64,000 nucleotides of DNA from Blasia pusilla (lineage: Eukaryota): positions 48,546,001 to 48,610,000 of the forward strand of contig CM114271.1 in NCBI GenBank assembly GCA_050084515.1, in the 5' to 3' direction. The notes under the pieces are model-generated. The model was not told where the DNA came from. It was given only the letters and a program-made list of their open reading frames with translations, and ran no database searches. The translations under genes and the position numbers were made by a program. Of this stretch, positions 3,001 through 60,417 are shown in pieces; the stretch's first letter is position 1, and every line of letters starts with the position of its first letter.

Positions 3001-3195
3001 CTGTTTCTCATGTGTTGCGAAAAGCGGATGACTTACGTTCAGATTCTGGTAGGGGATGAATTGCCATGCACAAGAAGATAAGCCAAGTCGAAACCCAAGA
3101 TTGAAGTCTGGCTGTATCAGCTGAATCCAGGTGCTTGGCTTATGGTCAGCAGGGACTAAAGTTGCCCAGCATCCAAGTTTCGCTCGGAGGTTAAG

Positions 3196-26804: not shown

Positions 26805-26950
26805 CATCTCGCACACATCCATCGTCCCGTGGGAACCACATCAAGAGGGGGGGGGTGATACATGACAAATGCCAACCTTCAGAACAACCATCACATATCA
26901 CATACCAACATGGTGGCTGCACCCCTTGCAGATCCGCACAACATACACCT
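26805..26950 (-). pseudogene. PHD finger at the integrase C-terminus of element C
   Basis: Across small frameshifts it reads LRCMLCGSARGAATMLVCD-GCSEGWHLSCITPPL...GRWMCARC, a C4-H-C3 pattern. Confidence 0.85.
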
Positions 26951-31000: not shown

Positions 31001-33464
31001 GGTGACGTTGGGAGTTGGACCAGCTGAGGTGTTACAGCTGGCCGCCACGTTGTGTGAGCGTGGAGAGATGACTGCTTCTTGTTCAGAGGTAGTTGAGGAG
31101 GTGTTGGACTTGCCCTCAGAGCCAGTGCTCAAGACGTTCCCCACAGAGTCATGGCATGCAGCAGCGGCAAAGTTGGTAGATATGCCAGCTCGACCGGCCA
31201 TAGAGCGAGCAGTGGTGATACCTGGAGTAGTGTTACTGGATAACCAAGTTGGAGTATTTTTCTTGGTTAGTCCGACGTGGACAGTATATCACCCGCAGCG
31301 CGTCCTACTTGATTCGGGAGCGCAACCCTTGATGTTAGGGAAGGCGGCGTGTTTAGCGTTGGGGTTATGGAAGGCCGATATTGAGCCTTGTCCCTTCCAG
31401 ATACAGACCTCGATTGGGGGCGTGTCACCCACGCAATATATGACTTGACAGGAGATAGTTGTCAAAGTCCAGCCAGAGCATGCGACAGATAGTGCTATGG
31501 TGCACACACGTGCGATTACGACACCAGCTGAGACGTACGATGTGTTGGTGGGGAGTACAGTGTTATATCCCCTGGGATTCATCTTGGACTTCTGGGAGGA
31601 GACCGTTGCTTATCGGTCAGGGTGGCAATCAGGTGACGGCCAGATGAGTCAGTTAACCGTGCAGTTTGCGGGACGAGGTGGTCGATCATGAGGCGAGTCT
31701 GTGACCACGTTGGCGGCTTTCACAGATAGTGTTAGCTGGCCAGAAGAGTTGTTGGAGGAGAATGCACATGCGGAGGATGTCGTAGTAGCGGATAGTCCCA
31801 CGGAGTGACAGGCCATGGCGGGTGTCTCTTCCCATGTTGGCGAGACCTCTTCACCATTGTGGAGTACGACTCGAGAGCTATAGAGGAGTGTCAACGACCT
31901 CGTGAGGCAGGCGTGGAGTCATGCTTTTATTCCAGAGCAGCGAGAGTCACGTGGCAATCGGGTTCTTGGAGTGGAGACGTTTACCCCACTGGATACCACA
32001 CCCGTTGTGTGGCAGTGCCCAGAGGAGGGTGTTAGGGTGTTAGATCTCTTCGGAGGGATTAGCACGGGATTGGCTGCAGTATTGCAGGCGGGCATACGGG
32101 TGCATACCTTTATGTGGAGAGAGATGATACCGCGCGACCAGTATCATTACGTCACGTGGCGCCATTGGTCTAGAGGTATCCTGAGTTGTTGCCGATATCT
32201 GCAATACGGGGATATCAGCATACACTACCCGCCAACATCTCTTTGGTAGGGGCGCAGGATCTTGAAAGAGTTGGCACCATTCATTTGGTGAACGTGTCGT
32301 TGTTGGGAGACACTCGTGCATGTGTGATGACGATTGTGTATCAGGTGAGGTCCTGGTGGGGACCTGCTGTGTTATTAGATGCGGCGAGAGTTAGATCACG
32401 TGCCTATCGTCCACGACTATGGTGGACAAACTGATACCATGAGAGGTACTGAGTCAAGCATACGATGGAGTCCAGAGAGCACCACATCTCACAATGGATG
32501 CTATTTTGGGCTCAAGGCGTCGATCTCAAGTGGTGACACGGGATGATAGACCACCGTTGGCCATGGCCAATAGGGTGGGGGAGTTGAGGGCAGCCTTACC
32601 TACGTTGGTGAGCTTCCCAACATCCCATGCCTTTCGTCAAGGAGGGTCAGGCATGATTTGGGATGAGGTGGCCAGAGCATTGGAGGAGCCTACAGCATAT
32701 GAGCGCGAGCGCGCCATGGGGTTTGCTACCGGTACTACGGCGGTGCCAAGGATGATTGAGGCATCCCGGAGACAGGTGTTGGGGCAGGCAATGGACCTCA
32801 ACTATCTCACATGGATAGTCAGCCTAGGTATGGCTGAGGAGAGATGGATGTGAGTGTCATCCATGTCGTCACGTCCACGAGTTGGACCATTGCCTACAGG
32901 GTCTGTACAGGCATTGGCTGGGGGCGAGACGAGGAGAGATAGGCACCCATGGACTTCCTGGGACGTCGTTCAAGCAGAGAGTGCGAAGGTGGCCAGAGTA
33001 GCACATGTTCATTTTTTGGATGTAGAGCATAGTGTAGGAGGTCAAAATGGAGTGGCTGTTGCAGAGGTGGCTAGGGTTGCTACATAGCAACCAAAGCCAG
33101 AGGTTGCGTCCTCTCCAAGTGAGGTCACAATGGAGACTTGGGAGCCTGTGATAGGTCTCAAGTTGATAGGAGGAGAGCGAAGGTGAGTTCATAGGTTTCT
33201 GAGAGGGCATGTCAGTTGTTTTGCTTCAGTATGAGAGACTTGGGTACGCTGAAGGGTCCTGGCATACGGATTGAGTTGGCTAGTGATACGCCGATCTTTC
33301 GTCAACCCTACATGTATTCTGATATGAAGCAAGCCTTGATTTAGAGCAGGAGTCAGGACTTGTTGGAGGCAAGACTTGTGGAGTTATCACATGGGGAGTA
33401 TGCATCTGCCACAGTCATGCCGACAAAGAAGGATATGTATGGCAATTAGACAGATAGGCAGATG
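28054..33464 (+). mobile_element. Element B (subfamily 2), 3'-truncated, inserted into the integrase of C: A'-gag-protease-DNMT-start of RT
   Basis: Starts TGTCACATCTGGG. A' repeat 28054-~28545 has TATATAA at ~28328. Gag 29404-29808, CCHC knuckle CDCCHRYGHTRDMC ~30320, protease VLLDSGAQP ~31300, DNMT motifs 32030-32830, RT start PIFRQPY ~33290. Confidence 0.85.
32030..32830 (+). pseudogene. DNMT3-like C5 cytosine methyltransferase domain of element B (catalytic PC motif deleted)
   Basis: Reads VLDLFGGISTGLAAVLQAGIRV, LLDAARVRSRAYRPRLWWTN and ERERAMGFATGTTAVP..SRRQVLGQAMDL. The sequence jumps from TIHLV directly to NV, removing motif IV up to motif VI. Confidence 0.85.
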
Positions 33465-35437
33465 CATGCCAACCGGGCACCATCTCCTCATCACTCTCTC
33501 CGTGCCATCGAGCTCCTGTGTCGTCTCTCTGACTCGGACATGGGTTATGACTCAACCCATCCGCATCCTGGTTCAGCCGACCTAGCCTATGAACCACCTC
33601 AAACTCATACTCCTATAGTAATAGAGCCCACCTGGCAAGCTTTCCCGTAAGCTTGTCGGACTCCATCAACCACCTCAACGGCTGATGATCAGTGATAAGT
33701 GTGAAAGGGTTGTCAAATAAATAGCACCTGAAATGTGCCACGGCCCACACTACAGCCAAGCACTCTCCCTCAAAGGAGCTGTACTTCGCCTCTACACTGT
33801 TGTTCGATCGGCTCGCGTAAGCAACAATGAACTCCCTCTCCTCGTCATCCCTCTAAGTAAGCACTGCTCCTAGACCCAACATGCTCCAATCCGTATGTAA
33901 CTGGAATGGGCGACCCTTATCTGGTCTGTGTAAAATGGGTGAGGATGCCAACTTGTCCTTGAGTTCTTGAAATGCTTGCTCCACATCATCTCCTCACAAC
34001 CAAACCTGATCAAGTCTCGTCAAGAAGGTCAAAGACTTTGCGATCGCACTAAAATCCTTGACATACGGTCGATAGAAGTTCGCCAGTCGAAGAAATGCTT
34101 GGACTCGACTCACATCTGTAGGGCGTGGAATCTGCGCAGTAGCCTCTATCTTTGTCTGCTGAACGCCTAACCCACTCGGGTATATGGTGTGTCCCAAGTA
34201 CTCAATCTGCTCCTGAAAGAATCTGCACTTTCCTGGATGTAACTTCAGTCCATGTAATTGCAATCGCCGAAACACCTCCTCCATGTGTCGCTCATGCTCC
34301 TCAACCGTGGAACTGAAGATAAGAATATCATCTATGTAACATCGTACAAAATCCAGGCCATCTAGAATCCTATCCATCACTCTCTGAAACTCTGCAGGCG
34401 CGTTCTTCAACCCAAATGGTAAGAACCGCCACTGATACAAGAAATCTCTCCCGAACCAATCTATCCCCCATAATGTTATCTTCTCCCTGTCCTCCAACCT
34501 CATAGGAAGCTGATGATAGAGATCTAAAGTACTGAAGATCTTTGCATGCCCTACCACATCAAAGATCTCCTCAAGAGTAGGCATGGCGTAACGATCTGAC
34601 CTCGTCTGTCGGTTGATAGGTCGGTAATCTCCACACATCCGCCTATCCATCCAATTGCCATACATATCCTTCTTCGTCGGCATGACTGTGGCAGATGCAT
34701 ACTCCCCATGTGATAACTCCAGAAGTCTTGTCTCCAACAAGTCCTGACTGCTGCGCTGAATCAAGGCTCGCTCCATATTGGAATACCTGTAGGGTCGACG
34801 AAAGATCGGCGTAAAGATCCTTCTCATGTAAAAATAAAGAGTAGTAAAAATGGCACACCCGGCCTAAAACTCCACTCCTCAATCTACATCGGCATATCGA
34901 GCCTCGTCCATCCTGTGCTATCAAGGAATCTGGACGCTAGCACCCTAGTCCTATCTCACACACATACCAGAGAGGTGCTCCAACGGCCCATCATGAGAAA
35001 GATGATTTAGGAAAGCCATCTTCCTCTCTTATATAGGATTGGGATGAGCCAAAAGGCTCTTCCCCTAAAAATAGCCCTCCCCTTGGTAACCTGCGCGCAC
35101 AGGTTAGCAAAGGCGGGTGACCTGGTCAACAAGTCACCCGGTTGTGAAAGACCTCAATATGAAAGTTATTAGAAACAACGTTCCTAACACAATGGACCTA
35201 TCCTCAACCTCATCCGACAAAATGGGAAAAAGTTACACTCAAGATAGTCTGCTGGCTCCTACGCCCTATCCACAATGGATCTCGGCCTATCGGCTATCCA
35301 GATGTGACAACTTGACTAACGTGAGAGAGCATGTTCTCCCTTTGTTTGGCTCATTCTCAACTATATTTAGGAATTTGCTAATTTGGGTAAGTTCCTATTA
35401 AGAACATAGTTGACTTTCTACCTTTGAAAGTGGCCCT

Positions 35438-35956
35438 TGTCACGTCCTTTAGGATAGATCGGTGAGATCTAGTAGAGCGTCTTCAAGAGTAGTGGAGGAT
35501 AGGCCTAGGAGGTCGAGGATGACCTGCTGAAGCCCCGGGGAAACCTGAGAGAGCAGGTTTCCCCTTCGTTTTTGCTCATTTGGAACCATATTTAGGAACT
35601 TACTATTTTAGGTAAGTACCCTTTTGAGTATATGATCGATTTTCTATTTTTGGTGAGTGGCCCTTGACCTCCTACATCAGGTCAAGACCTAAAGAGGTGA
35701 CTTGGGAGAATAGGTTACCATGGAGAGAGCTTGGGAGAGGGGAGGGGTATATATCCCAAGGAGAGAGAGCTTGAGAGCTCATTCTCTCTTTGTTGAACCT
35801 CTTGGCATGAGGCGGCGGAGCTATGGTCCCTTGCCTTGTGAGAGTAACCCAAGCCTTTCATTAGGAGAGTGGGTTTGGTTTGACATGAGAGAGAGAGTGC
35901 ACACCTTTGAGAGTTATGGTATGAGATCGTGTAGAGAGAGATTGGATTTTACTTTA
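35438..35956 (+). repeat. Repeat A1 (5' terminus of element E)
   Basis: Direct repeat of 46481-46997 with roughly six substitutions and one GA indel by eye. TATATAT box at ~35748. Confidence 0.92.
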
Positions 35957-36660
35957 CAAGCCTCTCATTAGGAGAGTGGGTTTGGTTTGACATGAGAGAG
36001 AGTGCACACCTTTGAGAGTTATGGTATGAGATCGTGTAGAGAGAATGCGAGAATGAGAGAAAGAGAGAATGCAAGACAGAGAGAGTGAGAGAGCTTCTTG
36101 GGGGAGCTCACTGGTCACTCGCTGTTTTTGCAGGTTGGGGACCGTGTTCCCCGTTCAACGGCTCATGGGAGTGCTCATCGGAGCAAGGGTTGCTTGGATA
36201 GTTCTTTGCATTTGCCGATTTTTCGTGTGAAAGAGTGGCGCGCGGAAGCGCTGCCCAATTTTTGATAGGGATTGAGTATGGGGGCGGGTTGCCCCATGCC
36301 GATGCTTTCGGGAGAACCATGTCGCTTGCTGATTTGGATTTTTATAGGTTTTACATTTTTGTTGGGAGGAATCAATGCGGAAGCGCTGCCGAATGTTGGG
36401 TAGAAGAAAAAGACATTGGGCTTTACGACAGTCCCCGTCAGTTTTTACTCGAATGTTTGATTCCAAATAATTTTTGATACTAGCGTAGATCGTGAAGTTG
36501 TGCATGTTGTGCAATAAATAGTGCGCAATTTGGAGTTGTGAGCAAAAAGTTATGGTCAATCTTGCAAAACTGCCATTGCTAGGCGATTTTTAGGGTTAAA
36601 TTGTGCAAACCCTAAACCAGCCGCCATAGTGGCGGCGGCCGTCGCCGTCATAGTCACCGT

Positions 36661-36760
36661 CAACCGTCAATGGTCAACTTTCACCGTCAATGGTCAACCA
36701 TCACCGTTAATGGTCAACCATCACCGTCAATGGTCAACTGTCACCGTCAATGGTCCACCG
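36661..36760 (+). repeat. 20-bp minisatellite (TCACCGTCAATGGTCAACnn, about 5 copies) in the 5' leader of element E
   Basis: Tandem units directly visible. A shorter related array lies at ~59815-59878 in element G. Confidence 0.85.
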
Positions 36761-39700
36761 CCCGTTTTCCACCCTTGGTTGCCATTGCCGCCGTTACGGA
36801 GTGGAGGATCTTCCACAACATTCGTTGATTCTCGGACTTGCGTCGCCATCACGTACTTTGTTTTGGCGGCTATCGTCATCAACCTGTGATGGCATATGAC
36901 CTCCCGTTATAGTTTTTGAGTTTTGATTTCCTGCTGCTATGTTGTGATTGGTAGCCGCTCAACGACGATCGGGTACCGTGCCGTGACGCCCGTAGCCGCA
37001 ATGCGCCGCCGATTGCCGCGTCGTGCCGCTCGTGGCCGCACCGCACCATCTTGATTGCAGAGCCGCTCCGGCATTGTGGAGCAGAGTGTGGGTTTATTGT
37101 TGATTGAGGAGGGTATGCCTCCGAGTGCCGCATCCCATCATCGAGGGCCGTGTCGTTCGTAGCCGTTTCGTGCCGCGCACAACGCCGCATCGTTCCGCTG
37201 GAACTGCACCATCTATCGAGGAGTTTTGAGCAACGTCAATACGAGAGGAGTATGACTTGCTGATTGGAGGAGTTGTCTCCACGACTAAGTTGGGGTCAAG
37301 ATTCGCAGTTGCTAAGGATCGACATTGACATGTGTTCAAGTTACCCATTCTGGTCCTTTAGCATGCACGTGTGAGGGATTCTGGGATTTGGGTAGTTTAT
37401 TTGGGGATATTGGGTGTGTGGATGTTGAGAGCATCATTTATGTATGTGATTTAGGGGACATAGACCTGTGTGGGATGTCCGGAGTTGAGGGTAGGTTGTC
37501 AATGAGATGATAGCCTGGTCGATTTGCCGCACCACGCTGCTTATTGCCGCACGTTACATGTCTCGGGGAGGGAGAGTGTAGATCGAGTGCCACATGTTTG
37601 GGATGAGTGATTGAGGGATTACTCACGAGGCAAGAGTGATTGGGTGAGAAGGGCACGAGGGTCATCACGGTGTCCGTTCGGGACTTTGAGAGGCGAGGTG
37701 GTGAACCCGAGAGTAGCTCTAGAGGTTTTACCTAGAGTGGCGTGAGGTTCCGAGGGTCTTCACTTCAGGGACCACCTCGACCTCCTTCTGTGTCATCGTC
37801 AGACGAGGGGGAGGGTGTAGAGGAATTTGTGAGCACATCGCTAGACATTGTGAGTGGTCCTACCAGTTGGGCGTACGAGATAGACGACCGGGGTAGAGGA
37901 CCGCGTAGGTTTTTAGGTGTAGTAGGTACGATTGAGTTGCACGATTTCATAGCAGAGTTTAGGAGTTGGTGCGACTCCCAGCGGGCCAGGAACTCTAGAG
38001 AGTTTAACCCGTTTACAACATGGAACGGTATGTTCCAGCATTTAGAGGGGGCATCCATGGACGATTACCATGAGTTTTCCCACAGATATGCCCGGGAGAT
38101 TGAGGCATGGCGACTCTAATACGACCCACACTATGTGTCATGGACGGAGCCGTTCCTAGATGAGGAGGAGAATTAGGAGAGGCTACTTCCTCTTCCACTA
38201 GTGATGTTTTAGGAGGGGTTACTCGCACTGGAGCAGTTGCACCGTCTAGTCGGGTTTGTCCCACGTTCAACCCCGTGGTTGAGTTCTTTGCTGAGTTGAG
38301 GGCGAGCTACCAAGGGGTATGGACGGAAAAGTTGCCGAGCATCCACAACTTCTAGAGGCGCCCAGGTGAGAGTTTACGTGAGGCTTACACTCACTTGCGC
38401 CGTTTGATCAACGTCACTCAGGGGGTGACAGAGGCTCAGGCTATCCAGTCATGATACGCGATGTTGGACCAGACCCTGCGGCCACGGGTGCGGGAGGGGG
38501 TGCTTCTTATGAGCACCTCCCCTATGTTGAGAGATGTCTTTAGGACCGCCGAGAAAATTCAGCGCAACATAGCGGAGGAGAGCGTAGCCACCATGGGTTC
38601 TGGACGAGAGCAGTCGCGATTGGCTGCACCACCTATGCAACAACGTGGACTCCGAGATAGGTCAATTGTGGCACCACGAGCTCAGGGAGGATACCGGGAG
38701 CTCGTGACACAGAGACCTGCGCCTTCATATATGGCTCAACAGCAGCCGCCTACTATTACTTGTTAGTCAAGTGATGGAGCCCATCATCAGCGCCATTGCA
38801 CTCGTCAAGGTCATGGACGTATGCCTCAACATGGAGGAGGAGATGGTGCTGCACCAGGAGGTTATCAGTGTGACTATTGTGAGAGGTATGGTCATACACG
38901 CGCCAGGTGTTTCAATTTACATCCTGAGTTACATTCGGACCGAGGGCCAGAGAGGGCACCAGAGCGAGTAGCCGGTCCGGGTGGGCCTAGAGATTGTGCA
39001 CCAGGTGGTCCCGTTGGGGGACGAGGAGCTGGAGCTGCCCGACAGGGTGGTGGAGCTGCCCATGGAGGAGGTAGAGTACCACCACCTAGATGCGCCGAGG
39101 GAGACGCCGGACGTGAGGTTGGGATGGATGCTCAGATACAAGAGCTACAGGAGCAGATTGCCACTATGGCATTGAGGTTACCCTATGCCGGATCCATGGC
39201 ATCGACATCATATGGAGTAGCCAAAGCTCTGGAGGATCTTGGTTGGATGTGCGGGGTTGCCCAAATGGAGGACGCCATAGTTATGATGCGTGGAGCAGCC
39301 GTAGAGTTGGATCCACAACGAGGGGAAATCAGAAAACAGACTAGGCTTCCTTAGTCTTTCACGTTGTCCGAAGCGATGAGGACCCCATCGATGGGTCCTC
39401 ATCAAGGTTCCTTGAGAGCTCGTGATGTTGTTGGTGTGCAGGCATGGAGGGTGATGGGAGAAGCAAGTGCGATGACTTCTATTGTTGATGCTCAGGAGGG
39501 GCATGTGTCGAGCACATTGTTGGGGGCGGCCACCATTGTGTACCGCACTCCTTTATTTTATGCTTCCGATGTTATGACGTTGGGGGGTACGCCCGCCGAG
39601 GCTTTTCGGCTGGCCGCGTCGCTATGTGAGCGCGGAGTTGGAGTTCCTGCATCACGTTCAGAGGTGATTGCAGAGGAGGTGATGGACCTGCCCTTGGAGC

Positions 39701-40589
39701 GGATGCTCGGACCGTCCACGTCAAATTCATGGCAAGCTGCGGCTGCTAGGATGGCGGAGATGCCCGCTAGACCCGCGATAGAGCGTGCCATGGCGTCTCC
39801 TGGTGTTGTGTTGCTGGATAACCGAGGAGAGGTCTTCCTGTTGGTGAGTCCTGGAGGTAGAGCTTTTAGTCTGCATCGCGTCTTGTTGGATTCAGGAGCG
39901 CAACCCGTGATGTTGGGGAAAGCGTCATTTAGAGGATTGGGCTTGACGAGAGCCGATGTGGAGCGTTGTCCATTCCGGATACTGACATCCTTGGGTGGAG
40001 CGAGTACCACACAGTATATCACCCGACAAGAGGTCGTGGTGAGGATTCGCCCGGGACATCCTACAGATGAGTCCATGGTGCGCGCAAGGCGATAGTAGTG
40101 ATCGATGAGAGTCCACGACGTCTTGGTTGGTGGAGCAGTGTTATACCCAATGGGGTTTTCCCTGGATTACTGGGAGGAGTCAGCGTCCTACAAACCAGGA
40201 TGGCAGTCAGGTGATGGGCGCCTTAGCTCATTACCCGTTTGATTTACAGGTGCAGTGATCAAGCAACGGCCAAGAGAGATGGCGACCTTAGCAGCATTTA
40301 GCACTGCCATCACTTGGGCTAGTGATTTGATTGAGGGATATGTCCATGCATAGGATACTCTCGTTCTTGATATTTCTATGGAGAGGAGTGTTATGGTAGC
40401 TGCATCATTCCGTGGAGGAGAGGTGCCGTTGTGGGGCTCGATTGAGGAACTTTGACGATTGGCAGATGAGCACGTGCAGACCGCGTGGAGCGTGATGGGT
40501 CTGAGGAACCCGAGGTTGCAGGGAGTGCTACAATGACACCCTTGGATACCACACCCATTGTGTGGTGTATCCCGGGGGAGGGTATTTGA

Positions 40590-41530
40590 GTGTTAGATCT
40601 CTTTGGAGGGATTAGCATCGGGTTAGCTGCTGTTTTGCAGGCAGGAGTGCGAGTACAACAGTACCTGTATGTGGAGAGTGATGATGTTGCAAGGCGCGTC
40701 TCACTACGACATGTGGCGTAGTTACGCCTACGTTTTCCCGACTTATTGTCTGCATGCGCACTACATGGGTACTAGAGTTCCCTACCAAGGAATATTTTGT
40801 TCTTGGGGGCGCAGGACTTAGAGCAGGTAGGGACCATTGATTTGGTCATTGCCGGTTGGCCATGTCAGGTCCAATCGAGTGCTGGACGAGGCAGCGGGTT
40901 GGCGGACACACGGTCTAGGTTGTTTTGGGAGATGTTGAGGGTCTTACGGCAGTTGCAGGAGCACCAGTCTCGTTCTCCAGCCAATATTTTGGAGAATGTG
41001 CCGATCTTAGGAGACTCCAGGTCACGGGTGGTGACGAATGCTCATCAGGTGTGTGCGTGGATCAGCCCAACAGTGTTCTTGGATGCGCCAAGTGTAGGTT
41101 CTAGAGCCCATCTCCCGCGTCTATGATGGACCAACTTGGTGCCCCATGCGGTGTTACGGAGGGCGAGAGTGGAGCGCCCCTCCCATTTGTTAGTGGATTC
41201 CATTCTAGGTCCAGGTCGTTGATCACAGGCAGTGGGGCATGATGATCGACCACCGTTGACTGTGGTCAACAGGGTAGGCAAGCCACGGGCAGCCTTGCCC
41301 ACGTTTGTGAGTTTTCCCACTTCCTATGCATACAAGGAGGCCGCGCCTGGCTTGGTTTGGGATGACCAGGTTCAGCGATTAGTGGAGCCCAACGCCGACG
41401 AGAGAGAGCGAGGGATGGGATTTCCCACAGGAGTGACGGCAGTACCGTCAGTGTCAGAGGCATCACGACGCCATCTCTTGGGTCAAGCGACGGACCTGAA
41501 CTGCTTGACATGGATCCTCAACTTGGGAGT
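40590..41530 (+). pseudogene. DNMT3-like C5 cytosine methyltransferase domain of element E
   Basis: Motif I VLDLFGGI, motif II YVE, motif IV DLVIAGWPCQ, SRLFWEMLRVL, motif VI ILENV, motif VIII FLDAPSVGSRAHLPRL*WTNL, motifs IX-X ERERGMGFPTGVTAVPSVSEASRRHLLGQA. All are in one frame, the same frame as the start of the downstream RT. Confidence 0.93.
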
Positions 41531-44112
41531 GGCTGAGCAGCGTCGTATGAGATCGCGACAGATCATAGCGGTTGCGTTGGTGAGCCCCATGCCTACCGAG
41601 ACGGTGGAGGCAATGGCTGGGGGCGAGACCCGAGGAGATCGGGAGAGACACCCTTGGACTTCTTGGGATGTTTTGCAGGTATGCAAGGAGATGATAGCCA
41701 CAACATCGAGCATGGTTTCGGCCACTGCACGTGGAGGAGATTAGAGTTTGCAGTTGGCTGCAGGAGAGCGGCCGAGTGTTGTCGTTCGAGACAGGATTGC
41801 ACCATAGCAACCACCGATACCCGCGCCGGAGAGTCCTACCGTAGTCACGATGGAGACTTGGGAGCCAGATATGGGCCCTAAGTTGACAGGAGGAGAGCGG
41901 CGCCGAATACATCAGTTCCTCAGGAGTTGTAGGAGCTGCTTTGCGTTGAACATGGAGGATTTGGGTACGTTGAAGGGACCGAGGATCCGCATTAAGTTGT
42001 CGAGTGATACGCCGATCTTTCGACGACCCTACAGGTACAGTGATATGGAGAGGGCTCTGATTCAGAGTAGGAGCCAGGACTTGGTCAGAGCAGGACTAGT
42101 GGAGATGTCGCATGGGGAGTATGCATCTGCCACTGTCATGCCCACCAAGAAGGATGTGCATGGCAACTCGACGGATAGGCGGATGTGTGGGGATTACCGA
42201 CCTATCAATCGGTAGACGAAGTCCGATAGGTATGCCATGCCCACCCCTGAGGAGATCTTTGATACGATTGGTCACGCAAAGATCTTGATTCATTGATTTA
42301 TGAGCGGATACCATGTACCCCTATCAGATTGGGAGGACAGCGTAAGACGGCATTTTGGGGCATCGATCCTCACGGGAAGGATTGTTTGTACCAGTGGCGG
42401 TTCTTACCATTTGGGTTAAAGAACGCCCCGTCTGAGTTTCATAGGGTCATGGATAGGATCTTGGCTGGTCTGGATTTTTCTAGGTGTTATATTGATGACA
42501 TCGTAGTCTTTAGCACCACGGTTGAGGAGCATGAGCGACATCTAGAGGAGGTGTTTCGACGATTGCAATTACATGGGCTGAAGCTGCATCCAGGCAAGTG
42601 CAAGTTCTTCTACGACAAGATTGAGTACTTGGGTCATACGATATACCCAAGGGGCCTTGGTGTTCATCAAACGAAGGTAGAGGCTATCTCACGCATTCCA
42701 CGCCCTACAGATGTGAGCCGTGTTCGCGCATTCATGGGATTGGCGAACTTCTATCGGCGATACGTGAAGGGATTCAGTTCGATTGCGAAGCCACTAACCT
42801 TGCTAAAGGTGGATCACGAGTGGCACTGGGGGGATGAGTAGGAGTGAGCATTTTAGTTGCTCAAGGACAGGTTGACGTCTGCGCCCATCTTGAGGAGACT
42901 GATCAAGGGGCGTCCTTTCCAGTTGCACACAGATTGGAGCATGTTGGGGCTTGGAGCGGTGCTCATCCAACATGATGATGAGGGTAGAGAGTTCATGGTG
43001 GCTTATGCTAGCCGCTCGAACAACGTTGCAGAGGCGAAGTACAGCTCGTATGAGGATGAGTGCTTGGCTACGGTGTGGGCTGTCGCGCATTTCAGGTGTT
43101 ACTTATTCGGCAATCCCTTTACCATCATCACTGATCATCAACCACTGAAGTGGTTGATAGAGTCCGACAAGCTTACATGGAAGCTTGCGAGATGGGCTAT
43201 GTTGTTGCAGGAGTATGATTTTTCAGGTGGTACATAGACCTAGGACGCTCAACCAAGATGCAGATGGGTTGAGTTGTAACCCATGACCGAGTTAGCGAGA
43301 TGCGAATGGAGCTCGATGGCATGGAGAGAGTGATGAGGAGTCAATGCCAGGATGGCACGCGTTAGCCTATTTAGGCATGTTGGTTATGGAGAGCCAGAGT
43401 GTGGAGACTTCGATGACGAGGTCTAATGGAGAGTCCTTGGATCCCGAGGCCAGTGAGGAGACGAGAGGTGTCCGAGATATTCATGATGATGGAGTAGTCT
43501 TGGAGTACCTTCGTACTGGAAGAGTTGCGAGCACTATGGGTGCTAGAAAGTGAGATCGGATCCTACAGCAAGCCAGACGGTTCCGTTGGGAGGGGACACA
43601 TGTTTTGAGGGTTTGGAAGGATGGCAGAGTAAGCGTAGTGCCGCATCCTTTGCAGAGAGCACGACTAGTGCAGCATGCCCATGAGGAGTTGGGTCACTTT
43701 GGGGTGAAGCGGACGTACATCTTGCTCCAGATTCAGTATTGGTGGCGAGGCATGCATACTGACGTTCAGCAGTTTTTTGCCAGGTGCATGGTGTGTGATC
43801 GGGTCCGAGCATCGTTCAATGCTCCAACTCCACAGTTGCATCCATTACCGATCATGGGCTTAGGGTACAGATGGAGTTTCGATTTTGCAAGACCTTTGCC
43901 TTTGACACAGCGTCACAGTCGTTATGTGTTGGTGATGGTCGAGCACTTCTCGAAGTGGATCGAGTTGGTTGCATTGCCTGACAAAGCAAGTGAGGGAGTA
44001 GCTTATGCCTTCCTTTACAGAATGCTGAGTCATTATGGCGCACCAGGTGAGGTGTTGACAGACCAGAATACCGAGTTTCGGGACGAGTTCCAAGCCTTGT
44101 GTGATCAACCGC

Positions 44113-45371
44113 TGTCGTATAGTAAAATCAATCAGTATATAAATTCCTTCGTCATTAAATGTTAGATAGAATTTCATTAGTATTAAGTAAATTGGCTTAG
44201 AAAAACAAAATTCTTATGTTTAAACCTCTTTATGGTGCCTCTTTTATGCGGGCCCAACTTTAGAAAAGGAGGTAATAAATAAAAGATGACTTTATAAAAG
44301 TAAAGTAGTTGCTTTAATAAAAAGAAAAAGTAGTCTTGGTTGGTGGCTAGTTTGGAAAATATCAAGTGGATAAAAGAGGATATTTTGGAAGAGATAAGAG
44401 GAAATCTACTTGTGTCAAAATGTGATTGGTTAAGCCTTGAGAGGAAGCCATGTGGCACAAGATAAGATAAGCTCTATTTCGTACTCTTGTGGATCCCTTG
44501 TGAGTATATAAAGAGGAGGAACCTTCAAGGATTCATCACCTTCTATTCCACATCTTGAGTCTCTCGTGTCTCTCTCGAGTGTATGTCTTTGGGATTGCTT
44601 GCTCTTCCAATGAGAGTGGATCACCCCTCTTGGGAGAGTAACTTGATCATGGTCTATTCTTCGAGAGGTTTCTAGAGTGTGGTGTGTGTGTGTGGAGATG
44701 AGAGGTTTGTCACCTTAGAGGAGTTTAGTCATACTAAAATAGTGGATGTTTTGGCTTGTTACTTCCCCAATGAGAGTGGATTATCCCTCTTGGGAGAATA
44801 ATTCCGCCAAAATCCATTCTTGAGGAGAGAAAAGAATATCTATCAAGCATGGATAGGGGTGGAGCACGAGTTGTGTCCGACTTTCCTTTCCTCAATCCAT
44901 ATCATGTCAAAGGTACTTTTTGTAGATAGACACTGGTTCACTCGATATTTAGTTTATCACTGTGGGGAAGCGTTCATGAACCAGGTCATGCAATCTCCAA
45001 CTCCGGTGATTCTTCCTATCGTCACATATGGAAGGACATGGGATTGTACTTTATATGTCCTTATATAGCGATCCATGGATGTCAATAGGCCTGCTCAATT
45101 AGGGTTTAACACTAGTTGTGCTATCTTCCTCGTGTACAAGCGTAAAATAGTTTATAAGGATTTTATAGCTAGGAATTTCGGGGTCCGATGTTACAAAGAA
45201 GTGATCGCCTCGGCACTTCCATTTGTGATACCTGTCGTGAGAGAATGGAGAGTCTACATCATAATTTTGTATTGAAAAAGGAGAACTTTTTAGAGAGTTC
45301 ACCTTGCATCGACCGCATCTACCGCAGCTAGAAGGCCCGCCCTTGCTCGAAGAAAGACTCTCGACACGACA
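44113..45371. mobile_element. 1.26-kb solo-LTR-like or mini element inserted in the integrase of E
   Basis: Termini TGTCGT...ACGACA. It splits the integrase peptide CDQ|ALINHRTTSRDHP. 4-bp TSD CCGC/GCGC with one mismatch. AT-rich, non-coding, TATATAAA at ~44506. Confidence 0.8.
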
Positions 45372-46029
45372 GCGCTGATCAACCACCGCACGACTTCGCG
45401 AGATCATCCCGAGGCGGATGGATTAGCGGAGAGAGTTGTGCAGACGGTGAAGAGGGGTTTACGCAAGTATGGCTTGCAGAGAGGTCAGCTAGGAGATTGG
45501 GACATCCATTTTCCATGGTTGGCGATGGGATACAGATTCAGCAGGCATGCATTCTTAGCGTCTTTTTCACCGTACTTGCTACTTTATGGCCGAGAGCCAA
45601 ATTTACCTGTGGCCATTCGTCAAGATGTTGTGAGGTGCTGGACCTTGATGACCCAGATGTATGGGTGCGAGCATGTTCTCAAAGGGCTGAGTTGTTTCGA
45701 AGAGTGATGCCCATGGCGTTCGAGAACTTGGCGATTGCGCAACATCGAGATACGTTGAGGTATGCGACTATTCGGGGTGGTGGTTATCGACCAACTATCC
45801 GGAGGTTTCATCAGGGAGATTATGTCTACTTGCGTGACGGCGGCAAGCGGCGTTGGATGTGATGCAGGCGCACTATCCGAGAGTGCGTGACGTTTTGCCA
45901 TCCGGTGTTCTCTTGCTGGAGGGACGCGATGGTATGGTATGGAAGGACCATGTGCGTAATTGTGCACCATGTCACCTTCCTAACATTGATAGTAGAGTGG
46001 ATCCGAGCTTAGCAGTAATTCCTGCAGGC

Positions 46030-46160
46030 TTGCGTTGTATGTTGTGTGGTGCGGCCACGATGCTAGTCTGTGATGGTTGTTCGAGAGATTGGCATATGGC
46101 ATGTGTGACGCCACCTCTCACTAGGATTCCTCGGGGACGATAGATGTGTCCTAGATGTAC
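46030..46160 (+). pseudogene. PHD finger at the integrase C-terminus of element E
   Basis: Reads LRCMLCGAATMLVCDGCSRDWHMACVTPPLTRIPRGR*MCPRC, a C4-H-C3 pattern with the conserved Trp mutated to a stop. Confidence 0.88.
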
Positions 46161-46350
46161 ATAGAGGAGATACTAGGTAGGTTTTGATCCCGAATTTTTC
46201 TCTGACATGGATGACATGAAGGCGACTAACGATGGGGCCACATGAGCACCCGGACTTCTTGCTCTTAGCGTCCGAGAGATGTATGTCATGGTAGGTAGGG
46301 ATAGATGGCTATCTGGAGTTAGAGGGACCTAACCACCAGGTAGGGGGGCG

Positions 46351-47125
46351 ATTGGAGATATTTTGGTTCTTCTTGTCTCGTTGTTTGGATGCCATGAGTT
46401 AGCAGGGGATCGTGCGTGTTTGTGTGTGTGTTCGATAATAGCGATGTATGTTGTGTAGCGATGTGTATGCGCACGACAACTATCACGTCCTTTAGGATAG
46501 ATCGGTGAGATCTAGTAGAGCGTCTTCAAGAGTAGTGGAGGATAGGCCTAGGAGGTCGAGGATGACCTGCTGAAGCCCCGGGGAAACCTGAGAGAGCAGG
46601 TTTCCCCTTCGTTTTTGCTCATTTGGAACCATATTTAGGAACTTACTATTTTAGGTAAGTACCCTTTTGAGTATATGATCGATTTTCTATTTTTGGTGAG
46701 TGGCCCTTGACCTCCTACATCAGGTCAAGAGCCAAAGAGGTGACTTGGGAGAATAGGTTACCATGGAGAGAGCTTGGGAGAGGGGAGGGGTATATATCCC
46801 AAGGAGAGAGAGCTTGAGAGCTCATTCTCTCTTTGTTGAACCTCTTGGCATGAGGCGGCGGAGCTATGGTCCCTTGCCTTGTGAGAGTAACCCAAGCCTT
46901 TCATTAGGAGAGTGGGTTTGGTTTGACATGAGAGAGAGTGCACACCTTTGAGAGTTATGGTGTGAGATTGTGTAGAGAGAGATTGGATCTTACTTTAATT
47001 GGAGATATTTTGGTACTTCTTGTCTCGTTGTTTGGATGCCATGAGTTAGCATGGGATCGTGCGTGTTTGTGTGTGTGTTCGGTGATAGCGATTTATGTTG
47101 TGTAGCGATGTGTATGCGCACGACA
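46351..47125 (+). repeat. B1-A2-B2 block at the 3' end of element E
   Basis: B1 46351-46478, 2-nt spacer AC, A2 46481-46997, B2 46998-47125. Preceded by purine tract AGGGGGGCG (46342-46350). Confidence 0.92.
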
Positions 47126-49578
47126 CCCTTGATCTTGTAAAGGAGGTCAAGAGCCAAAGAGATAAGGTGTGAGTATAGATTTATGTGGAGAGAACTTGGG
47201 AGAAGGAAGAGGTATATCCAAAGAGGGAGTTTTGAAGCTCATTCTCTTTTTTGAACCTTTTGGCATGAGGCATTGGAGTTATAATCCTTCATGCCTTGTA
47301 ATTAATCCAAACTTCTTATTAAGAGAGTGGGTTTGGCTTGACTTGAGAGAGAGATAGAAATTGTGTGAGAGATTGTAATGCCTTTGATTTACAAAGAGAG
47401 AATGAAGGAATGAGAGCTCTACAATGCAAGAGCTTGATGGTTGTTTGTTGGTTTTGTAGGTTGGGGACTGTGTTTCCCATTGAGTAGTTCATGGGAATGC
47501 TCACAAGAGCAAGAGCCGTCCCATTGTGTACGTCATTGGAGTGGTCTTGATTTACAAAGAGGTAAGGGTTTACCTATGACCATTCGTTACAATGCGAGTT
47601 AGTTATTGAATCTCAAGAATCTGAATGTATGGACATGAGCATGTTCTCAACGGGGTTGACTTGTCTTGGAGTGTTATATACCCATAACGTTCAAGAATTT
47701 GATTATTTCACATCATCAGGATATGTTGAGGTATGAAAATATTTGGGAAGGTGATTATTGACCAAAAATCTACATAGAAGTTCCATCGAGAATACAATCT
47801 CTACTTTCAGTAGACGACCCTCACAATATTGGATGTTATAGCAAGGTGCGCTATCTTCAAAGTGCATGAGGTGTTGCCATCTATATTTAATGTTCTCATA
47901 TTGGAAGGAAGTGATGTTATGGTTTGGAAGAACCATGTGCATAACTTTGCGCCATGTCACCTTCCGAATATTGATGGTACAATTGATCTAACCTTAACAA
48001 TTAGATGCTACTATTGTTAAGATTGCTAACAATTAGATGCTACTATTGTTAAGCTAGTTATATATTGTATAGATTTTCCCGTAGTAACAATAGAAGCTAG
48101 TTATATATTGTATAGATTTTCCCGTAGTACAACCATTCAACCACCATGCTACTCTATGGTGGATGTTTGAGAGGATAGTATATGGCATGTCTAACGCCAC
48201 CTCTCATGATCAGTAGTGTTCTTCAAGGACTATGGATATGCCCCAAACGTAGGTAGAGTAGGTACTAGATAGTCATAGATCTAGACTTGAGTTAATGATA
48301 TGGATGATATGGATGATAAGAAGACGACTAACGATGGAGCCATATGAGCACCTGACCTTTTTGCTCTTAGTGTCCTATAGATGTATGTCATGGTTGGTAG
48401 GGATAGATGACTATTTAGAGTTAGAGAGACCTAACTAGGGGGGCGATTAGAGATATTTTGCTACATAATTGTCTTAGTATTTAAATCACATGAGTGTGTA
48501 TGATATGTAGTGTGCATGTGCTTGAAGGCAATGCCAATCATGTGTGTTGTGTAGCATTGTGTATACGCATGATATCATAAGAAAAATATCTTATGTCATT
48601 TTGGACAAGTCAACACTAATTACATTAATGCATTTTTTAGCAATTGTCAATTGACAATGAGCACATGATTAAAGATAATTTTCAAGGTTTGGGATTAGCT
48701 TTATTAAAATAAATAGAAGTTGACCCCCAAATGTTAACTCATTAAGAACCCAAGTTTGTGTCTAAAGGACTCTTAATTTCTCACAATTAGATCAAATCAT
48801 TCTTGAGTCTAACCATAGCCCTATTTTCTAATATGGTTATGGTTTAATAGTGTGTATTGAATTAGATTTTGGCCATGCAAGTTATAAATCGACCATACAA
48901 TTAATTGTTTTGAGTTTCTCCTCTTAGAATCCCTCACTAAACTTGACATCCAAATCACTTGTTTGGTCATGAAAACACTTATCAACTAGGTTATCATATC
49001 ACATAGTGTCTACACACAACAATCAATAATCATAAAGTAGATTGACAGTATTTTTTTTGGAATGTTGCAAGAGATTGATATTTTCAATGACAGGATGCAA
49101 GTAGAGTAGCTTTTCAAGTAGTAGACTGATTGTCACTCCCTCATAAGATAAGCAAGAGATTCAATTGTAGCTAATGCAATGTAAGAAACATGGTTCTGTT
49201 TCTTCTACCTTGGTGCTCTCATCTATTGCATTCTTGTGCAACACAAGTCACCTTTGGTCCAAGTTTGCCTTTCCCCTACTAGAATGCAATAGATCGCATA
49301 TATTTTGCATTAAAAGAACTCTATCCCCTAAAAGTATTCTAAAGATGAGATAGAATAAAGGATAAGGTTTCTTTAAAAAACTTAGACACTTATTGATGCA
49401 TATGTTGAAGGGATCACATAGTCGCTTGGGTTTGGCATTACACAAGATTACAACCTACTTTGGTAGAGTTGGTCATCTTCAACTCCAAATGAATCAAGTG
49501 GTGAAATGGATTGTGATGGAAATGACACTCTCTCCTTGCAACCATATTCTCAATCCAAGACAAGACTAGGATCCCTTT

Positions 49579-52500
49579 TGTTGTGTGCATCCATATCGTT
49601 ACACAATCCACATCGCTAGTCACATCTACACAACATATCATACCAATCTTTCTAACACATCGGTAGATCCACATACAAACAAAATACACTCGTGCCTATA
49701 CATCAAGACCACACAACTTCCTCCCTAGTTGGCAGTGGGGTCTCCCTATGGCTAACTCCAATAACACATATTACATCTACCAGACATGACCTACAACCTT
49801 ATACATATCTAGCACCGTTGGTGTTGTCATTTCCGCAACATCTTCCAACACATGCTTGATCCCACGCGTTCCACGGAAGCCGGGTTAAAATATTTTATTT
49901 TAGATCCATCTCACCTATCTCTATCTAGAGATATCAATATATCCGTATGTTTTCCTACAACATTGCACCTAGCTTTCATGTTTATCAAAATCTAACACTC
50001 AGATCCTCTTCCAGATGTTGCCACACAATAAGTGTGGTATGCAAAGATATCAAGTCTCCACTCCAAGAGCATAACCATCACCTCAGTATGTCTACTCCAA
50101 GATACAAGCACGGTTCCACACCTACCTTACAAGCTCGTTTGCTACTCAACGCTCGTACCTAGCAATAGTGAAGAGGTCTCACCAATATGCATGCAGGAAG
50201 AAACATCTGCCATGGCATGGCCCTCCGTGGAACTATCCCCTATCAAGATGTCATATGTAGGTGCGTTCCCCTCCATCAACTCTCTTGGCAAGCTAACAAC
50301 ACATGTGAATATTGCCAATGTGGTTATTGTATCGTCATTTGGTCGACCATCATTACGCCGTACAAACCACACTAGTAATTGGTTCACTTGTCCATCACCT
50401 AATCATCATCCTGGCCGATAAGACATTGTCTCTTCCTAGATATCAAGGATGAAACCAAGGATACAACACCTTGCTTCCTACGAACACATCATATGAATCT
50501 ATTGGTGTTGTAATCACACCAGTGCGCACTACGGCATTATTTGATGCAATTATGGTTGGAGTTTGGCAACTTACTTCTGTTGAGTCATGTACTATGTGGA
50601 TGATACGCCCCAAATAGATGTTTGTATCTAAAAGGAAAAGGCTCAATATGGCCTTTTTGTAATCCCAATGCCAAACACCCCGCCTTTCCTAATATCCAGG
50701 GTTGTCCTCTTGAATCAAATAGGACACGCTAGGGGTGATACACTATACCTGTGGGACTAACCAAGCAAAACACTCCAACTTGATTATCCAAAAACACCAC
50801 AAGTGGTGTCACTATAGCTTGCTCCATGGGTAGATCAAGTTGGCATATCCATCAATTTCGTCATTGTAGCCTGCCAAGATTGAGAGGGGGGACATCCCGA
50901 GCACATGCTCCGAGGGCATGTTGATCCACCATCTCCTCAACAACCACCTCTAAAAAAGAGGGAGTTACCTCTCCACATTTACACAAAGTGGTAGCTACTA
51001 AAACATCTCTGCTGGTCCAACTCCATGGCAGAAAATAAAAGAGTCTGACTCACCCTAGTGGCCACCACTTGTCACGTCTTTTAGGATAGATTGGCAAGAT
51101 CTAGTAGAGAGCCTTCGCAGAAAGTGGAGGACAACCTCAAGAGGTCGAGGATGACGTGTTGAGGCCATGGATAATCTGAGAGAGCAGGTTTCCTCTCCAT
51201 TTCGCCTCATTTGGAGCAACATATAGAAACTTACTATATATGGTAAGTTCCCATTTTGAGTATAGTTGACTTTCCACTTTGGGAAATGGCCCTTGACCCG
51301 CTACATGGGGTGAAGAGCCAAGGATGTGACCTGCAAGCATTGGTTACCATGGAGAGAGCTTAATTGGGAGAGGGAAGGGGGTATACCTCCAAGAGAGAGC
51401 TTGAGCTAGCACATACAAGGCAAGGAGGAGCTATGGTCTTCCTTGCCTTGTATGTGTAACCCAAGTCTCTCATTTAAGAGAGTGGATTTGGTTTGACATG
51501 AGAGAGAGAGAGAGAGAGTTCACCTTGTGGGAGCTCTAATTAATTGATTTATTGGAGATATTTTGGTACTTCTAGTTTCGATGCCATGAGTTAGCATGAG
51601 ATCATGCGTGTTTGTGTGTGTGTGTTTGGTGATAACGATATATGTAGCGATGTGTATGTGCACAATACACTTGTGGGCACCATTGGTCATCTAAGCATCA
51701 TAAATGGTGTATGAATTGCCTTCGACAACATAAATGAATTGGGAAATTTTGGCTTGTGGCCCATTGGTCCCCTCTTGTGGGTCAATCTCAACCCCACCTT
51801 AGTGTGGCTTGGTCAATCTCCTAGCACCCTTAGTCACCACCGCCGCAACCTCTATTTGAGTTGGATTGCACATAAATCTCAACGAGTGTAATTTCATTCC
51901 AAATCCTCACATGATGTAGAGGCTAGAGCTAACATAGGTACTCTCAGCTCTGTTTCCATCATTGGTTGTGTCATTGACATAACAACAATCCTCAGCTCCA
52001 AGTGATCGATACGAGTGAGGAGCATCCTCCATCTCCTCTGATTGGTGGTGGAACTCTACCATCTCGGTCCTCAACTCCTCGATCTCCACCAACTCTCTTG
52101 CCTCAAGGCCCTCGGCCTATTTTTAGACATAGCTCTTAGTGAAGATCAAAACACCTATCCCTAGTGCAACCATATCGGTGATAATGGTCATACTATAAAT
52201 TTGGTGGAGCCATCCTAGGTGGCTCATGAGCAATCGAAGGCACCCTCAGACCTCTACCATATTGTGGGCATTCCCTCTGCCTATAGGCCCACCACACATC
52301 TAAGAAGCCAACATTGGTCCATGTTGGCCAACAAATGTCGGTACGGGCCGTTGCCTCATAGGCTCATAATATCCGCCTTGCTCTCTGGGCACACCAACCT
52401 GCTCTCGTGGTATTGGTGCATGTTGGGGCACTTGTGGGGCTACTGGCACTCAAGGACACCTCAACTCCTAGGGAAATCCTATGGTCATAACTTGCTCCTC

Positions 52501-53824: not shown

Positions 53825-54400
53825 CATGAAAATCTCCTTGAACAACATATCAAACCTCATGTTATCGGATGTAGAGTACTACCCGTCATGACGGCCAGCC
53901 AGAACACCTCCGCTGGTCCAACTCCCATTGTTGCCAACTCCATGTCGTAAAACAACAAAGCCTTGCTCACCCTTGTGGCCACCTCAAACATCATGGTCAA
54001 CACTGGCTCCACCCAAGCCAACATAGGAGTTGTCTCTCCAACACCTCTTGACGTTGATGCACCTACCTTACCTTTGGGCACTATTGGTCATCTAGGCACC
54101 ATCCACAATGTCTGAAGTACCTCCAACAATGTAAACAATTAGGGACCCCTGGCTTGTTGCCCATAAGTTTCCTCTTGTGGGCAACAAGAGGAAACTTATG
54201 GGCAACAAGAGGAAACCGTTGAGGTTGTTGTACCATATGAAGCAGTTAATGTTGACCATGCAGTAGAGTGATTGCATGCATGTTCAGCTTATCCATTCGA
54301 GTCCCTTTTCCTACAATTGTCTTATGTCATTGAGGGTGTAAAGTATTAGATAGAACTTAGGCTAGATGGGTGTAGCGATGGTGACGAGTGTAGACTCCTT

Positions 54401-60320: not shown

Positions 60321-60417
60321 GGGTCGACCGTCATTCGGTGTCTACATCGACACCAACATGAGCTTTGTGAGTTATGTCTCCCTCCCTTAAATTTATGACG
60401 TTTTCCCTTATGGTGTC

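Follow-up and report, generated by a model that had tools for sequence, protein, structure and literature searches.

We analysed a stretch of 64,000 nucleotides from the land plant Blasia pusilla (GenBank assembly GCA_050084515.1, contig CM114271.1, positions 48,546,001 to 48,610,000), which is called the window below. Self-comparison and a protein map showed that the window, to the right of about 26.5 kb, consisted of nested and related retrotransposon copies in both orientations, among them the elements named here E, G, B and F. Elements E, G and B carried a domain resembling the cytosine-5 methyltransferase (C5-MTase) DNMT3. The window very probably holds decayed, nested members of one Ty3/Gypsy-type family, the working form of which would be one polyprotein in the order gag (CCHC)-protease (PR)-DNMT3-like methyltransferase-reverse transcriptase (RT)-RNase H (RH)-integrase (IN)-PHD, and the family would be the counterpart of Gypsy-Dnmt3 of the alga Klebsormidium nitens.

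Structure of element E

Element E showed the pol order of Ty3/Gypsy elements. Pfam and tblastn placed PR, RT, RH and a DDE-type integrase in this order, with the integrase after RT (Table 1). The translations of E showed the gag knuckle CDYCERYGHTRARC and the protease motif LLDSGAQP. E itself gave no Pfam match to Asp_protease_2 or zf-CCHC at an E-value of 0.01 or less. Relatives carried both families, and in the intact relative P0176 the Asp_protease_2 match was located at the place corresponding to the protease region of E. P0176 was a single open frame of 2358 amino acids (aa) with Pfam Asp_protease_2, DNA_methylase, RVT_1, RT_RNaseH, Integrase_H2C2, rve and PHD in order. This meant that the methyltransferase was in frame with pol in an intact relative. 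The PHD finger of P0176 was matched at 5.8e-11.

The ends of E were arranged as A1-internal-B1-A2-B2 and not as two plain long terminal repeats (LTRs), and the plain-LTR reading was dropped. The sequences flanking the unit, 35318-35439 and 47126-47354, matched positions 103-227 and 222-457 of an A-type repeat with 76% identity. They overlapped by exactly the duplicated 6 nt, which indicated that they were two halves of one older repeat. E 35440-47125 is a bona fide insertion into an older relative. In addition, the 6-bp target-site duplication (TSD) around A1-internal-B1-A2-B2 showed that the split-repeat unit was inserted as a whole. Neither a primer-binding site nor a polypurine tract was identified at the ends of E.

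Two features belonged to this copy. Reads and contigs of other copies joined the end of A directly to 36079, so the 88-nt tandem duplication after A1 was specific to E. The integrase was interrupted by a nested repeat. A junction of 44107 with 45371, 45372 or 45376 was present in RNA reads from three runs and also in one DNA contig, and the ends of this gap were not GT..AG. An intron was considered for the 1,264-bp gap and rejected because the ends were non-canonical, the DNA contig also lacked the stretch, and the stretch was a high-copy repeat. The nested repeat had no clear terminal repeats.

Table 1. Positions of the retrotransposon features in the window (position 1 is the first letter of the window)
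Feature	Positions	Strand	Remarks
Whole inserted unit of E, A1-internal-B1-A2-B2	35440-47125	+	bounded by 6-bp TSD
Left TSD of E, CCCTTG	35434-35439	+	same hexamer at 47126-47131
Terminal repeat A1, 517 bp	35440-35956	+	98.6% identical to A2
Tandem duplication, specific to this copy, of the final ~88 nt of A1	35957-36044	+	96.6% identical to A positions 411-498
E gag	37895-39354	+	tblastn to Marchantia P0156 residues 9-475; CCHC knuckle in frame 38767-39354; CxxCxxxxHxxxxC visible
E aspartic protease region (LLDSGAQP) and linker	39355-40503	+	open reading frame 39355-40095; tblastn to P0156 up to residue 845
E DNMT3-like C5-MTase domain	40575-41594	+	pseudogene, 5 in-frame TGA/TAG stops; frameshift from PR at about 40503-40515
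E RT (YIDD) and RNase H	41808-43237	+	Pfam RVT_1 9.8e-22, RT_RNaseH 4e-34, RT_RNaseH_2 1.1e-29; frameshift at about 42216-42262
E integrase, N-terminal part (H2C2 zinc domain, start of rve core)	43554-44107	+	Pfam Integrase_H2C2 3.7e-15, rve 7.9e-9
Nested 1,264-bp high-copy AT-rich repeat in E integrase	44108-45371		GC 0.40; high depth; skipped by reads
E integrase, C-terminal part	45372-45835	+	tblastn to P0176 residues 2078-2231
E PHD finger at integrase C-terminus	45838-46158	+	Pfam PHD 7.3e-5, 23.2 bits, just below cut-off of 24; conserved W now TAG
Repeat B1, directly upstream of A2	46351-46482	+	96.1% identical to B2 over 128 nt
Terminal repeat A2	46483-46997	+	98.6% identical to A1
Repeat B2, end of inserted unit	46998-47125	+	followed at once by right TSD 47126-47131
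Element G: 5' repeat fragment, gag, PR, DNMT, RT start	54401-60279	-	truncated at 54401; 83.5% identical to E 37274-42224 over 5014 nt
G DNMT3-like domain	55032-56054	-	pseudogene, 4 in-frame stops; AlphaFold2 and Foldseek support
Element B (second subfamily): gag, PR, DNMT, pre-RT linker	29404-33464	+	then broken by rearrangement
Element F: gag-PR remnant, same family	50184-53170	-	tblastn map
Diverged A then B repeat, A-B junction of another subfamily	51072-51663	+	A 75.6% over 467 nt (51072-51508); B 78.6% over 126 nt (51551-51663)
DNMT remnant with motif I (VLDLFRGI)	62498-62587	-	tblastn E-value 1.5e-4 to P0156 residues 864-893

The methyltransferase domain and its kind

The methyltransferase domain was read in one frame, with X at the stops, in copy E (40470-41744, plus strand) and in copy G (54738-56306, minus strand). 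In both copies motifs I, II, IV, VI, VIII, IX and X were present in order. Pfam PF00145 matched the domain of E with 41.4 bits (E-value 1.6e-10) and that of G with 39.8 bits (4.8e-10), both above the cut-off of 22 bits. In a tblastn map made with two natural relatives, the domain lay after protease and before RT in all three copies, E, G and B. The sequence-only reading of this DNA had claimed a complete C5-MTase at the same place in these three copies. The position was the same in all three, and the motif set was complete in E and G, though interrupted by stops. The claim of completeness failed in B, where the domain (32072-33012) lacked about 56 residues from motif IV (PCQ) to the E of ENV, so that motifs IV-VI were deleted. 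The pieces of the B domain gave no Pfam match. Two further remnants had been proposed at about 62370-62610 and 49900-50030. The first was recovered by tblastn with its motif I (Table 1), but the second was lost, since the trace at 49821-49882 beyond element F was not significant (E-value 0.2-0.4).

The link of the domain with the neighbouring frames was as described earlier. In E, the methyltransferase and the RT start lay in one frame within a single high-scoring segment pair (HSP) of tblastn at 40572-42284. In G, gag-PR-DNMT formed one HSP in one frame (57905-54918), and an open frame at 54738-55487 ran from motif VIII into the pre-RT linker with no stop. Motifs I, IV (PC), VI (ENV), VIII, IX and X were unpermuted and the alignment to DNMT3A was colinear; the window copies carried stops and a few missense lesions. 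The Gypsy-borne DNMT is a real and correctly recognised feature, and the copies of the window are fossils.

The kind of methyltransferase was examined by sequence, by profile and by predicted fold. In a search against all solved structures, 29 of 29 PDB sequence matches at an E-value of 0.01 or less were DNMT3A, DNMT3B or DNMT3C, and they were colinear. A profile of 28 family members was compared with solved chains. DNMT3A came first (8e-26), followed by DNMT3C and DNMT3B (about 1e-22). Plant DRM reached 1.6e-16 and 1.3e-12 with the same profile and was matched on the stretch that is permuted in DRM. M.HhaI was found at 1e-9 and DNMT2 at 1.3e-4 or worse, and no DNMT1 or CMT chain was matched at an E-value of 1 or less. 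The AlphaFold2 model of the G domain, built with the family alignment, had a mean predicted local distance difference test (pLDDT) score of 91.6 and a predicted template modelling (pTM) score of 0.91. Among the Foldseek PDB matches listed (32 rows, ranks 1-49), all were DNMT3A, DNMT3B or DNMT3C, with a template modelling (TM) score of about 0.8 normalised on the target. The identity to DNMT3A was only about 22%. In addition, look-alike clusters of the ESM Atlas carried PF00145.

These results supported a DNMT3-like, unpermuted domain that appears nearer to DNMT3 than to DRM, DNMT1/MET1, CMT, DNMT2 or bacterial enzymes among solved structures; the name "DNMT3-like" stands here for a ranking against solved structures and not for a phylogeny, which counts against taking it as a statement of descent. 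The resemblance to DNMT3 in unpermuted order, unlike DRM, was thus borne out: DNMT3A, DNMT3B and DNMT3C were at the top by sequence, profile and predicted fold, and DRM was a weaker match. The domain shared the order of motifs I-X and a short target-recognition region with the cellular DNMT3 enzymes. However, it had no adjacent PWWP or ADD domain, and the sole chromatin-reader-like module of the element was the PHD finger at the distant C-terminal end of the integrase.

Selection, co-descent and decay of the family

The ratio of nonsynonymous to synonymous substitutions (dN/dS, Nei-Gojobori) of the DNMT domain was 0.19 between E and G (95% bootstrap interval 0.14-0.28), 0.18 between E and B and 0.18 between G and B. 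The values for RT were 0.11-0.18, and those for RT and RNase H spanned 0.09-0.18. The codons were mapped by tblastn to reference proteins, a guidance that may bias these values slightly downward, and dS was saturated in the pairs with B. In 137 near-full domains of relatives, the motif I Gly, the motif IX Gly and the Glu of ENV were kept in all 137, the motif IV Cys and the motif IX Glu in 136, and the two motif VIII arginines in 135 and 136. These results indicated that purifying selection has acted on the domain, as on RT.

The wider family was searched by HMMER with the G domain against 1.84 billion cluster representatives. The search gave 2141 proteins at an E-value of 1e-3 or less, 644 at 1e-10 or less and 179 at 1e-30 or less. 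Among the 150 matches listed, 118 were at most 40% identical to the query, and most were long polyproteins with RT, RH and IN around the domain. Two domain orders were found in 218 family proteins. The order RT-RH-DNMT-IN was present in 103 proteins and the order PR-DNMT-RT of the window in 48, in a sample enriched for the latter class because one gathering search was seeded with a member of it; the other 67 proteins were too short to tell. A PHD finger followed the integrase in 57 of 66 proteins of the RT-RH-DNMT-IN class and in 2 of 7 of the PR-DNMT-RT class, counted in an earlier set of 196 proteins among those that reached the end of the integrase.

Trees were compared between the methyltransferase and the neighbouring domains. 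In the FastTree tree of the DNMT domain (107 rows), the two orders were split by 1 change, and the split itself was weakly supported. In a quick IQ-TREE tree of 51 rows, the two orders lay on either side of one branch with an SH-aLRT support of 99. This set consisted of 30 of 76 rows of one order (class a) taken at random, 19 of 29 rows of the other (class b, from which nine near-copies and a single long branch had been removed) and the 2 rows of the window. The RT-RH tree of 67 rows also placed the two orders on either side of one branch, with a support of 99. Since the DNMT and RT-RH trees split alike by domain order, the methyltransferase and RT have shared one line of descent. With a single branch between them, the two orders would go back to one relocation or to two basal captures, with strict co-descent ever since.

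We also weighed a passenger origin, in which one element captured a host DNMT3 sequence by accident and the sequence then spread as a hitch-hiker of no use to the element. The capture of host fragments is known from retrotransposons. However, dN/dS of the domain was as low as that of RT, the search gave 179 clusters at 1e-30 or less with low identity and a long polyprotein in most listed matches, and the DNMT and RT-RH trees were congruent for the two domain orders. The passenger explanation was contradicted by the selection and tree results, and we regard it as extremely improbable. The earlier claim that the methyltransferase was a stable module in both subfamilies and not a one-off capture agreed with these results, in which dN/dS between subfamilies was not near 1.

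The named relatives were all from land plants and all of the PR-DNMT-RT class. They comprised 12 "hypothetical protein" clusters of Marchantia polymorpha and 1 protein of Sphagnum fallax, and included Mp_4g09160, Mp_8g17980, Mp_6g11220, MARPO_0091s0058 and BDL97_09G086500 (Sphagnum fallax). The relatives were annotated only as hypothetical or uncharacterised, and one UniRef name was "DNA (cytosine-5)...". The DNMT domain of E was 61% identical to Mp_4g09160, and its RT-RH region was 78% identical to MARPO_0091s0058. The window copies and the Marchantia proteins were grouped with a support of 100 in the DNMT trees. The Marchantia and Sphagnum models had the order gag-PR-DNMT, with RT next where the model reached that far. 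Unlike the window copies, they were open reading frames; the Marchantia gene models had open gag-PR-DNMT frames of 1248-1278 aa. This is a warning to annotators, because some "DNMT3-like" gene models of bryophytes are transposon genes.

Transcription was examined with three stranded RNA-seq runs of the same species label, mapped on 35440-46997 at a likeness of at least 85%. The runs gave 7071, 7903 and 7770 reads on E. First mates were about 10:1 on the minus strand, which corresponds to sense RNA in the usual library type. All 30 bins of E had depth, and the three DNMT bins had a depth of 29-84. Most mapped reads were 85-95% like E. Members of the family were shown to be transcribed in sense orientation. 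However, the small number of reads closely matching E indicated that the transcripts came from other members of the family. An RNA joint from 41971 to 43036 was observed in all three runs (12, 23 and 9 reads, with several start points), which removes most of RT. Its ends were GA..GC, and it was absent from the DNA contigs examined. This joint may stem from a transcribed copy at another locus that carries the deletion, or from unusual splicing.

Several of these data weighed against a family with working members. Intact copies were looked for, and none was present in the window. Over gag-PR-DNMT, E had 16 stops, G had 13 and B had 15, in addition to frameshifts, and 43 of the 44 stops were TAG or TGA. 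Missense changes had occurred at residues kept by 133-136 of the 137 relatives, with R>L in E and R>H and G>D in G. Only 15-25 of the approximately 7000-7900 reads per run were at least 99% like E. The stops stood almost exclusively where the relatives have W, Q or R codons, and several were shared between copies, a pattern in keeping with transitions (C>T and G>A) at methylated cytosines. The observed/expected ratio of CpG was 0.67-0.74 in the copies. With repeats that were still 98.6% identical and a frame full of stops, E had probably lost its coding function before it was inserted and relied on the proteins of another copy.

These lesions bear on the possibility that the family is extinct. 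All copies with a DNMT would then be relics, the RNA would be read-through or transcripts of silenced loci, and the low dN/dS would record an ancient function. In line with this, all three larger copies and both remnants in the window were broken, the stops of E far exceeded the age of its young-looking repeats, and most RNA reads were at some distance from E. However, the 98.6% identity of the repeats and the clean TSD marked E as a recent insertion, so a source of working proteins existed at that time. In addition, sense RNA covered the whole element in three runs, and the Marchantia models had open frames. We consider extinction unlikely, and the family may still have working members outside the window.

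A TAG was found at the same codon of the gag/PR junction in E (39352), G (57281) and B (30795), where Marchantia P0156 has Gln (residue 475). A programmed read-through stop of the retroviral type was considered for this codon and was not adopted, since a chance recurrence of CAG>TAG is plausible. A rough estimate of the chance expectation at 13-16 stops per copy was about 3 shared sites per pair and 0.6 common to all three.

Known elements, possible function and neighbouring features

Elements of this kind have been described. According to the text and legends of de Mendoza et al. (PMC5890265), Gypsy-Dnmt3 was published in 2018 for the streptophyte alga Klebsormidium nitens. KnitGypsy-Dnmt3 has an intronless DNMT3-like domain in the Pol frame with conserved catalytic residues and Ka/Ks <0.2, and the legend of Fig. 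4c gives its repeats, in an element with Gypsy domains, as A-coding-B-A-B, "same as a DIRS retrotransposon" (PMC5890265). Passages of a 2026 preprint name the kind "streptophytes (Gypsy-DNMT3)". The window family resembled KnitGypsy-Dnmt3, as described there, in the intronless unpermuted domain within a Gypsy Pol frame, the streptophyte host and the conserved catalytic residues. The Ka/Ks of the alga corresponded to the dN/dS of 0.18-0.19 in the window copies, and E shared the A-coding-B-A-B layout, which is bounded by a 6-bp TSD in E. This likeness is one of description and not of direct sequence comparison, and the domain order of the alga is not visible in the text and legends of that paper. 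The host is a charophyte alga in the one case and a land plant in the other. The text on KnitGypsy-Dnmt3 makes no mention of a PHD finger, whereas the family of E has one.

SymbioDIRS-Dnmt3 of Symbiodinium also has a DNMT3-type domain in the Pol polyprotein and split direct repeats, as stated in the same text (PMC5890265), where its acquisition of DNMT is given as independent. However, it uses a tyrosine recombinase, and the window family has a DDE integrase (rve, Integrase_H2C2) and a 6-bp target duplication.

Judged by its sequence and layout, the window family is the land-plant counterpart of K. nitens Gypsy-Dnmt3, of which the kind is known and the member is new. No paper was found on these elements, or naming the Marchantia models, in land plants; Repbase, REXdb, Dfam and the figures and supplements of 2018 were outside that search. 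The novelty claimed in the sequence-only reading was therefore kept in part. A description from a land plant was not found in the literature, but the kind had been published in K. nitens and relatives were already in the annotation of Marchantia and Sphagnum. The land-plant host, the link to unstudied Marchantia and Sphagnum gene models, and the size and two domain orders of the superfamily are new. The regular PHD finger and the TSD showing that the split-repeat unit was inserted as a whole are also new.

The PHD finger had its nearest solved relatives in Lid/KDM5 PHD1, CHD4 PHD2, PHF21A and AIRE (4.8e-10 to 7e-7). These PHD fingers bind unmethylated H3K4. Chromoviruses are Gypsy elements whose integrase ends in a chromodomain. 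The family of E is like them in having a histone-reader module fused to the integrase C-terminus, presumably for targeting, and the reader is a PHD finger here. It is possible, though somewhat short of an even case, that the PHD finger would tether the integrase to chromatin and steer it to nucleosomes with unmethylated H3K4.

DNA methylation is the main weapon of the host against transposons. A transposon with its own de novo methyltransferase is counter-intuitive for this reason. The pairing of the enzyme with a histone-reader-like PHD finger and with an unusual repeat layout adds to the interest of the family. In intact copies, the domain would probably be an active DNA 5-methylcytosine (5mC) methyltransferase. 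The enzyme would be made in Gag-Pol, so that on balance it should travel in the particle where the complementary DNA (cDNA) is made. Methylation of cDNA or of the fresh insertion was proposed for DIRS elements in the text of de Mendoza et al. (PMC5890265). By analogy, the enzyme of the window family might methylate the double-stranded cDNA of the element or its fresh insertion, a step that we suggest only tentatively.

The module might be selected, but not as a DNA methyltransferase. It could methylate the RNA of the element, as DNMT2-type enzymes do, or serve as a module that binds nucleic acid or chromatin and whose catalytic pocket is required for nothing beyond flipping or covalent trapping. 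Two points that favour such a role also count against a DNA methyltransferase. The only published assay of a Gypsy-type DNMT, that of KnitGypsy-Dnmt3 in yeast, found no detectable methylation and is called inconclusive by its authors, according to the text of the paper (PMC5890265). Motif IV was Glu-Cys in 65 and Pro-Cys in 62 of the 137 relatives, so that half of the wider family was without the canonical Pro, although Cys was kept in 136. RNA methylation is raised in the same text for a DNMT borne by a long interspersed nuclear element (LINE), and the only retrotransposon DNMTs given there with shown de novo CG methylation, in yeast, are those of SymbioDIRS-Dnmt3 (PMC5890265). However, the nearest solved chains by sequence, profile and fold were the DNA enzymes DNMT3A, DNMT3B and DNMT3C, and DNMT2 was far lower. 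The residues of the S-adenosylmethionine (SAM)-binding and catalytic motifs were near-invariant, which is not expected of a pure binding module. We regard a role other than DNA methylation as improbable and keep to a putative DNA methyltransferase.

A broader reading is offered with reserve and seems more doubtful than likely to us. Gypsy-Dnmt3 may be an old and species-rich "epigenetic toolkit" superfamily that has persisted into land plants (liverworts and Sphagnum) and is still transcribed there. It would combine a DNMT3-type methyltransferase, an integrase PHD finger and non-LTR-like split repeats. Its prevailing order would be RH-DNMT-IN, and the lineage of the window has PR-DNMT-RT. A metagenome contig (L001, 1-3336), found in a search with P0047, carried a class-a relative of 28% identity with an open C-terminal part of 1111 residues (DNMT-IN-PHD). 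Its 3.4-kb 3' flank had no direct repeats of at least 40 nt, and this one distant locus gave neither support for a general A-B-A-B layout nor clear evidence against it. If the reading were true, open copies in the transformable Marchantia polymorpha would make the gain of a transposon from methylating DNA directly testable. A land-plant family that is transcribed, with apparently open copies in the model liverwort Marchantia, would in any case be a tractable system for cDNA self-methylation and integration targeting.

The other copies of the window were rearranged. A 185-bp inverted duplication with 98% complementarity (53640-53824 and 54216-54400) was located at the truncated 3' end of G, and it probably marks the rearrangement that cut G. 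Copy B was flanked by minus-strand IN-PHD (26798-28069) and RT-RH (33517-34812) pieces of a further copy, and inverted repeats of 91% identity lay around B at 28044-28546 and 34817-35318. This further minus-strand copy seems to enclose B or to have been rearranged with it. The divergence between E 37274-42224 and G 59366-54401 was uneven. dS was 0.25 in gag and 0.60 in DNMT, with nucleotide identities of 88-90% and 80-84%, which suggests recombination between subfamilies. The coding strand of the copies had an excess of G over C, with a GC skew of +0.17 to +0.28 in the plus-strand copies (28000-47000) and -0.13 to -0.26 in the minus-strand copies (52000-60000). An open frame of 152 residues at 60391-60849, which adjoined the truncated 5' repeat of G, gave no Pfam match.

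An Rfam scan of the window gave no match. A host gene was located at 3160-13622. It encoded a nodulin-like protein of the major facilitator superfamily (MFS), similar to NFD4, and extended over more than 10 kb with long introns. Pfam Nodulin-like was matched in the exon at 3160-3648 (3e-23) and NFD4_C in the last exon. Proteins of two liverworts, Marchantia paleacea (69%) and Calypogeia fissa (68%), were nearest to the last exon, and mosses gave 54-58%. This pointed to a liverwort as the probable host, but not to M. polymorpha. The observed/expected ratio of CpG was 0.47 across the host gene region, which was lower than in the transposon copies.

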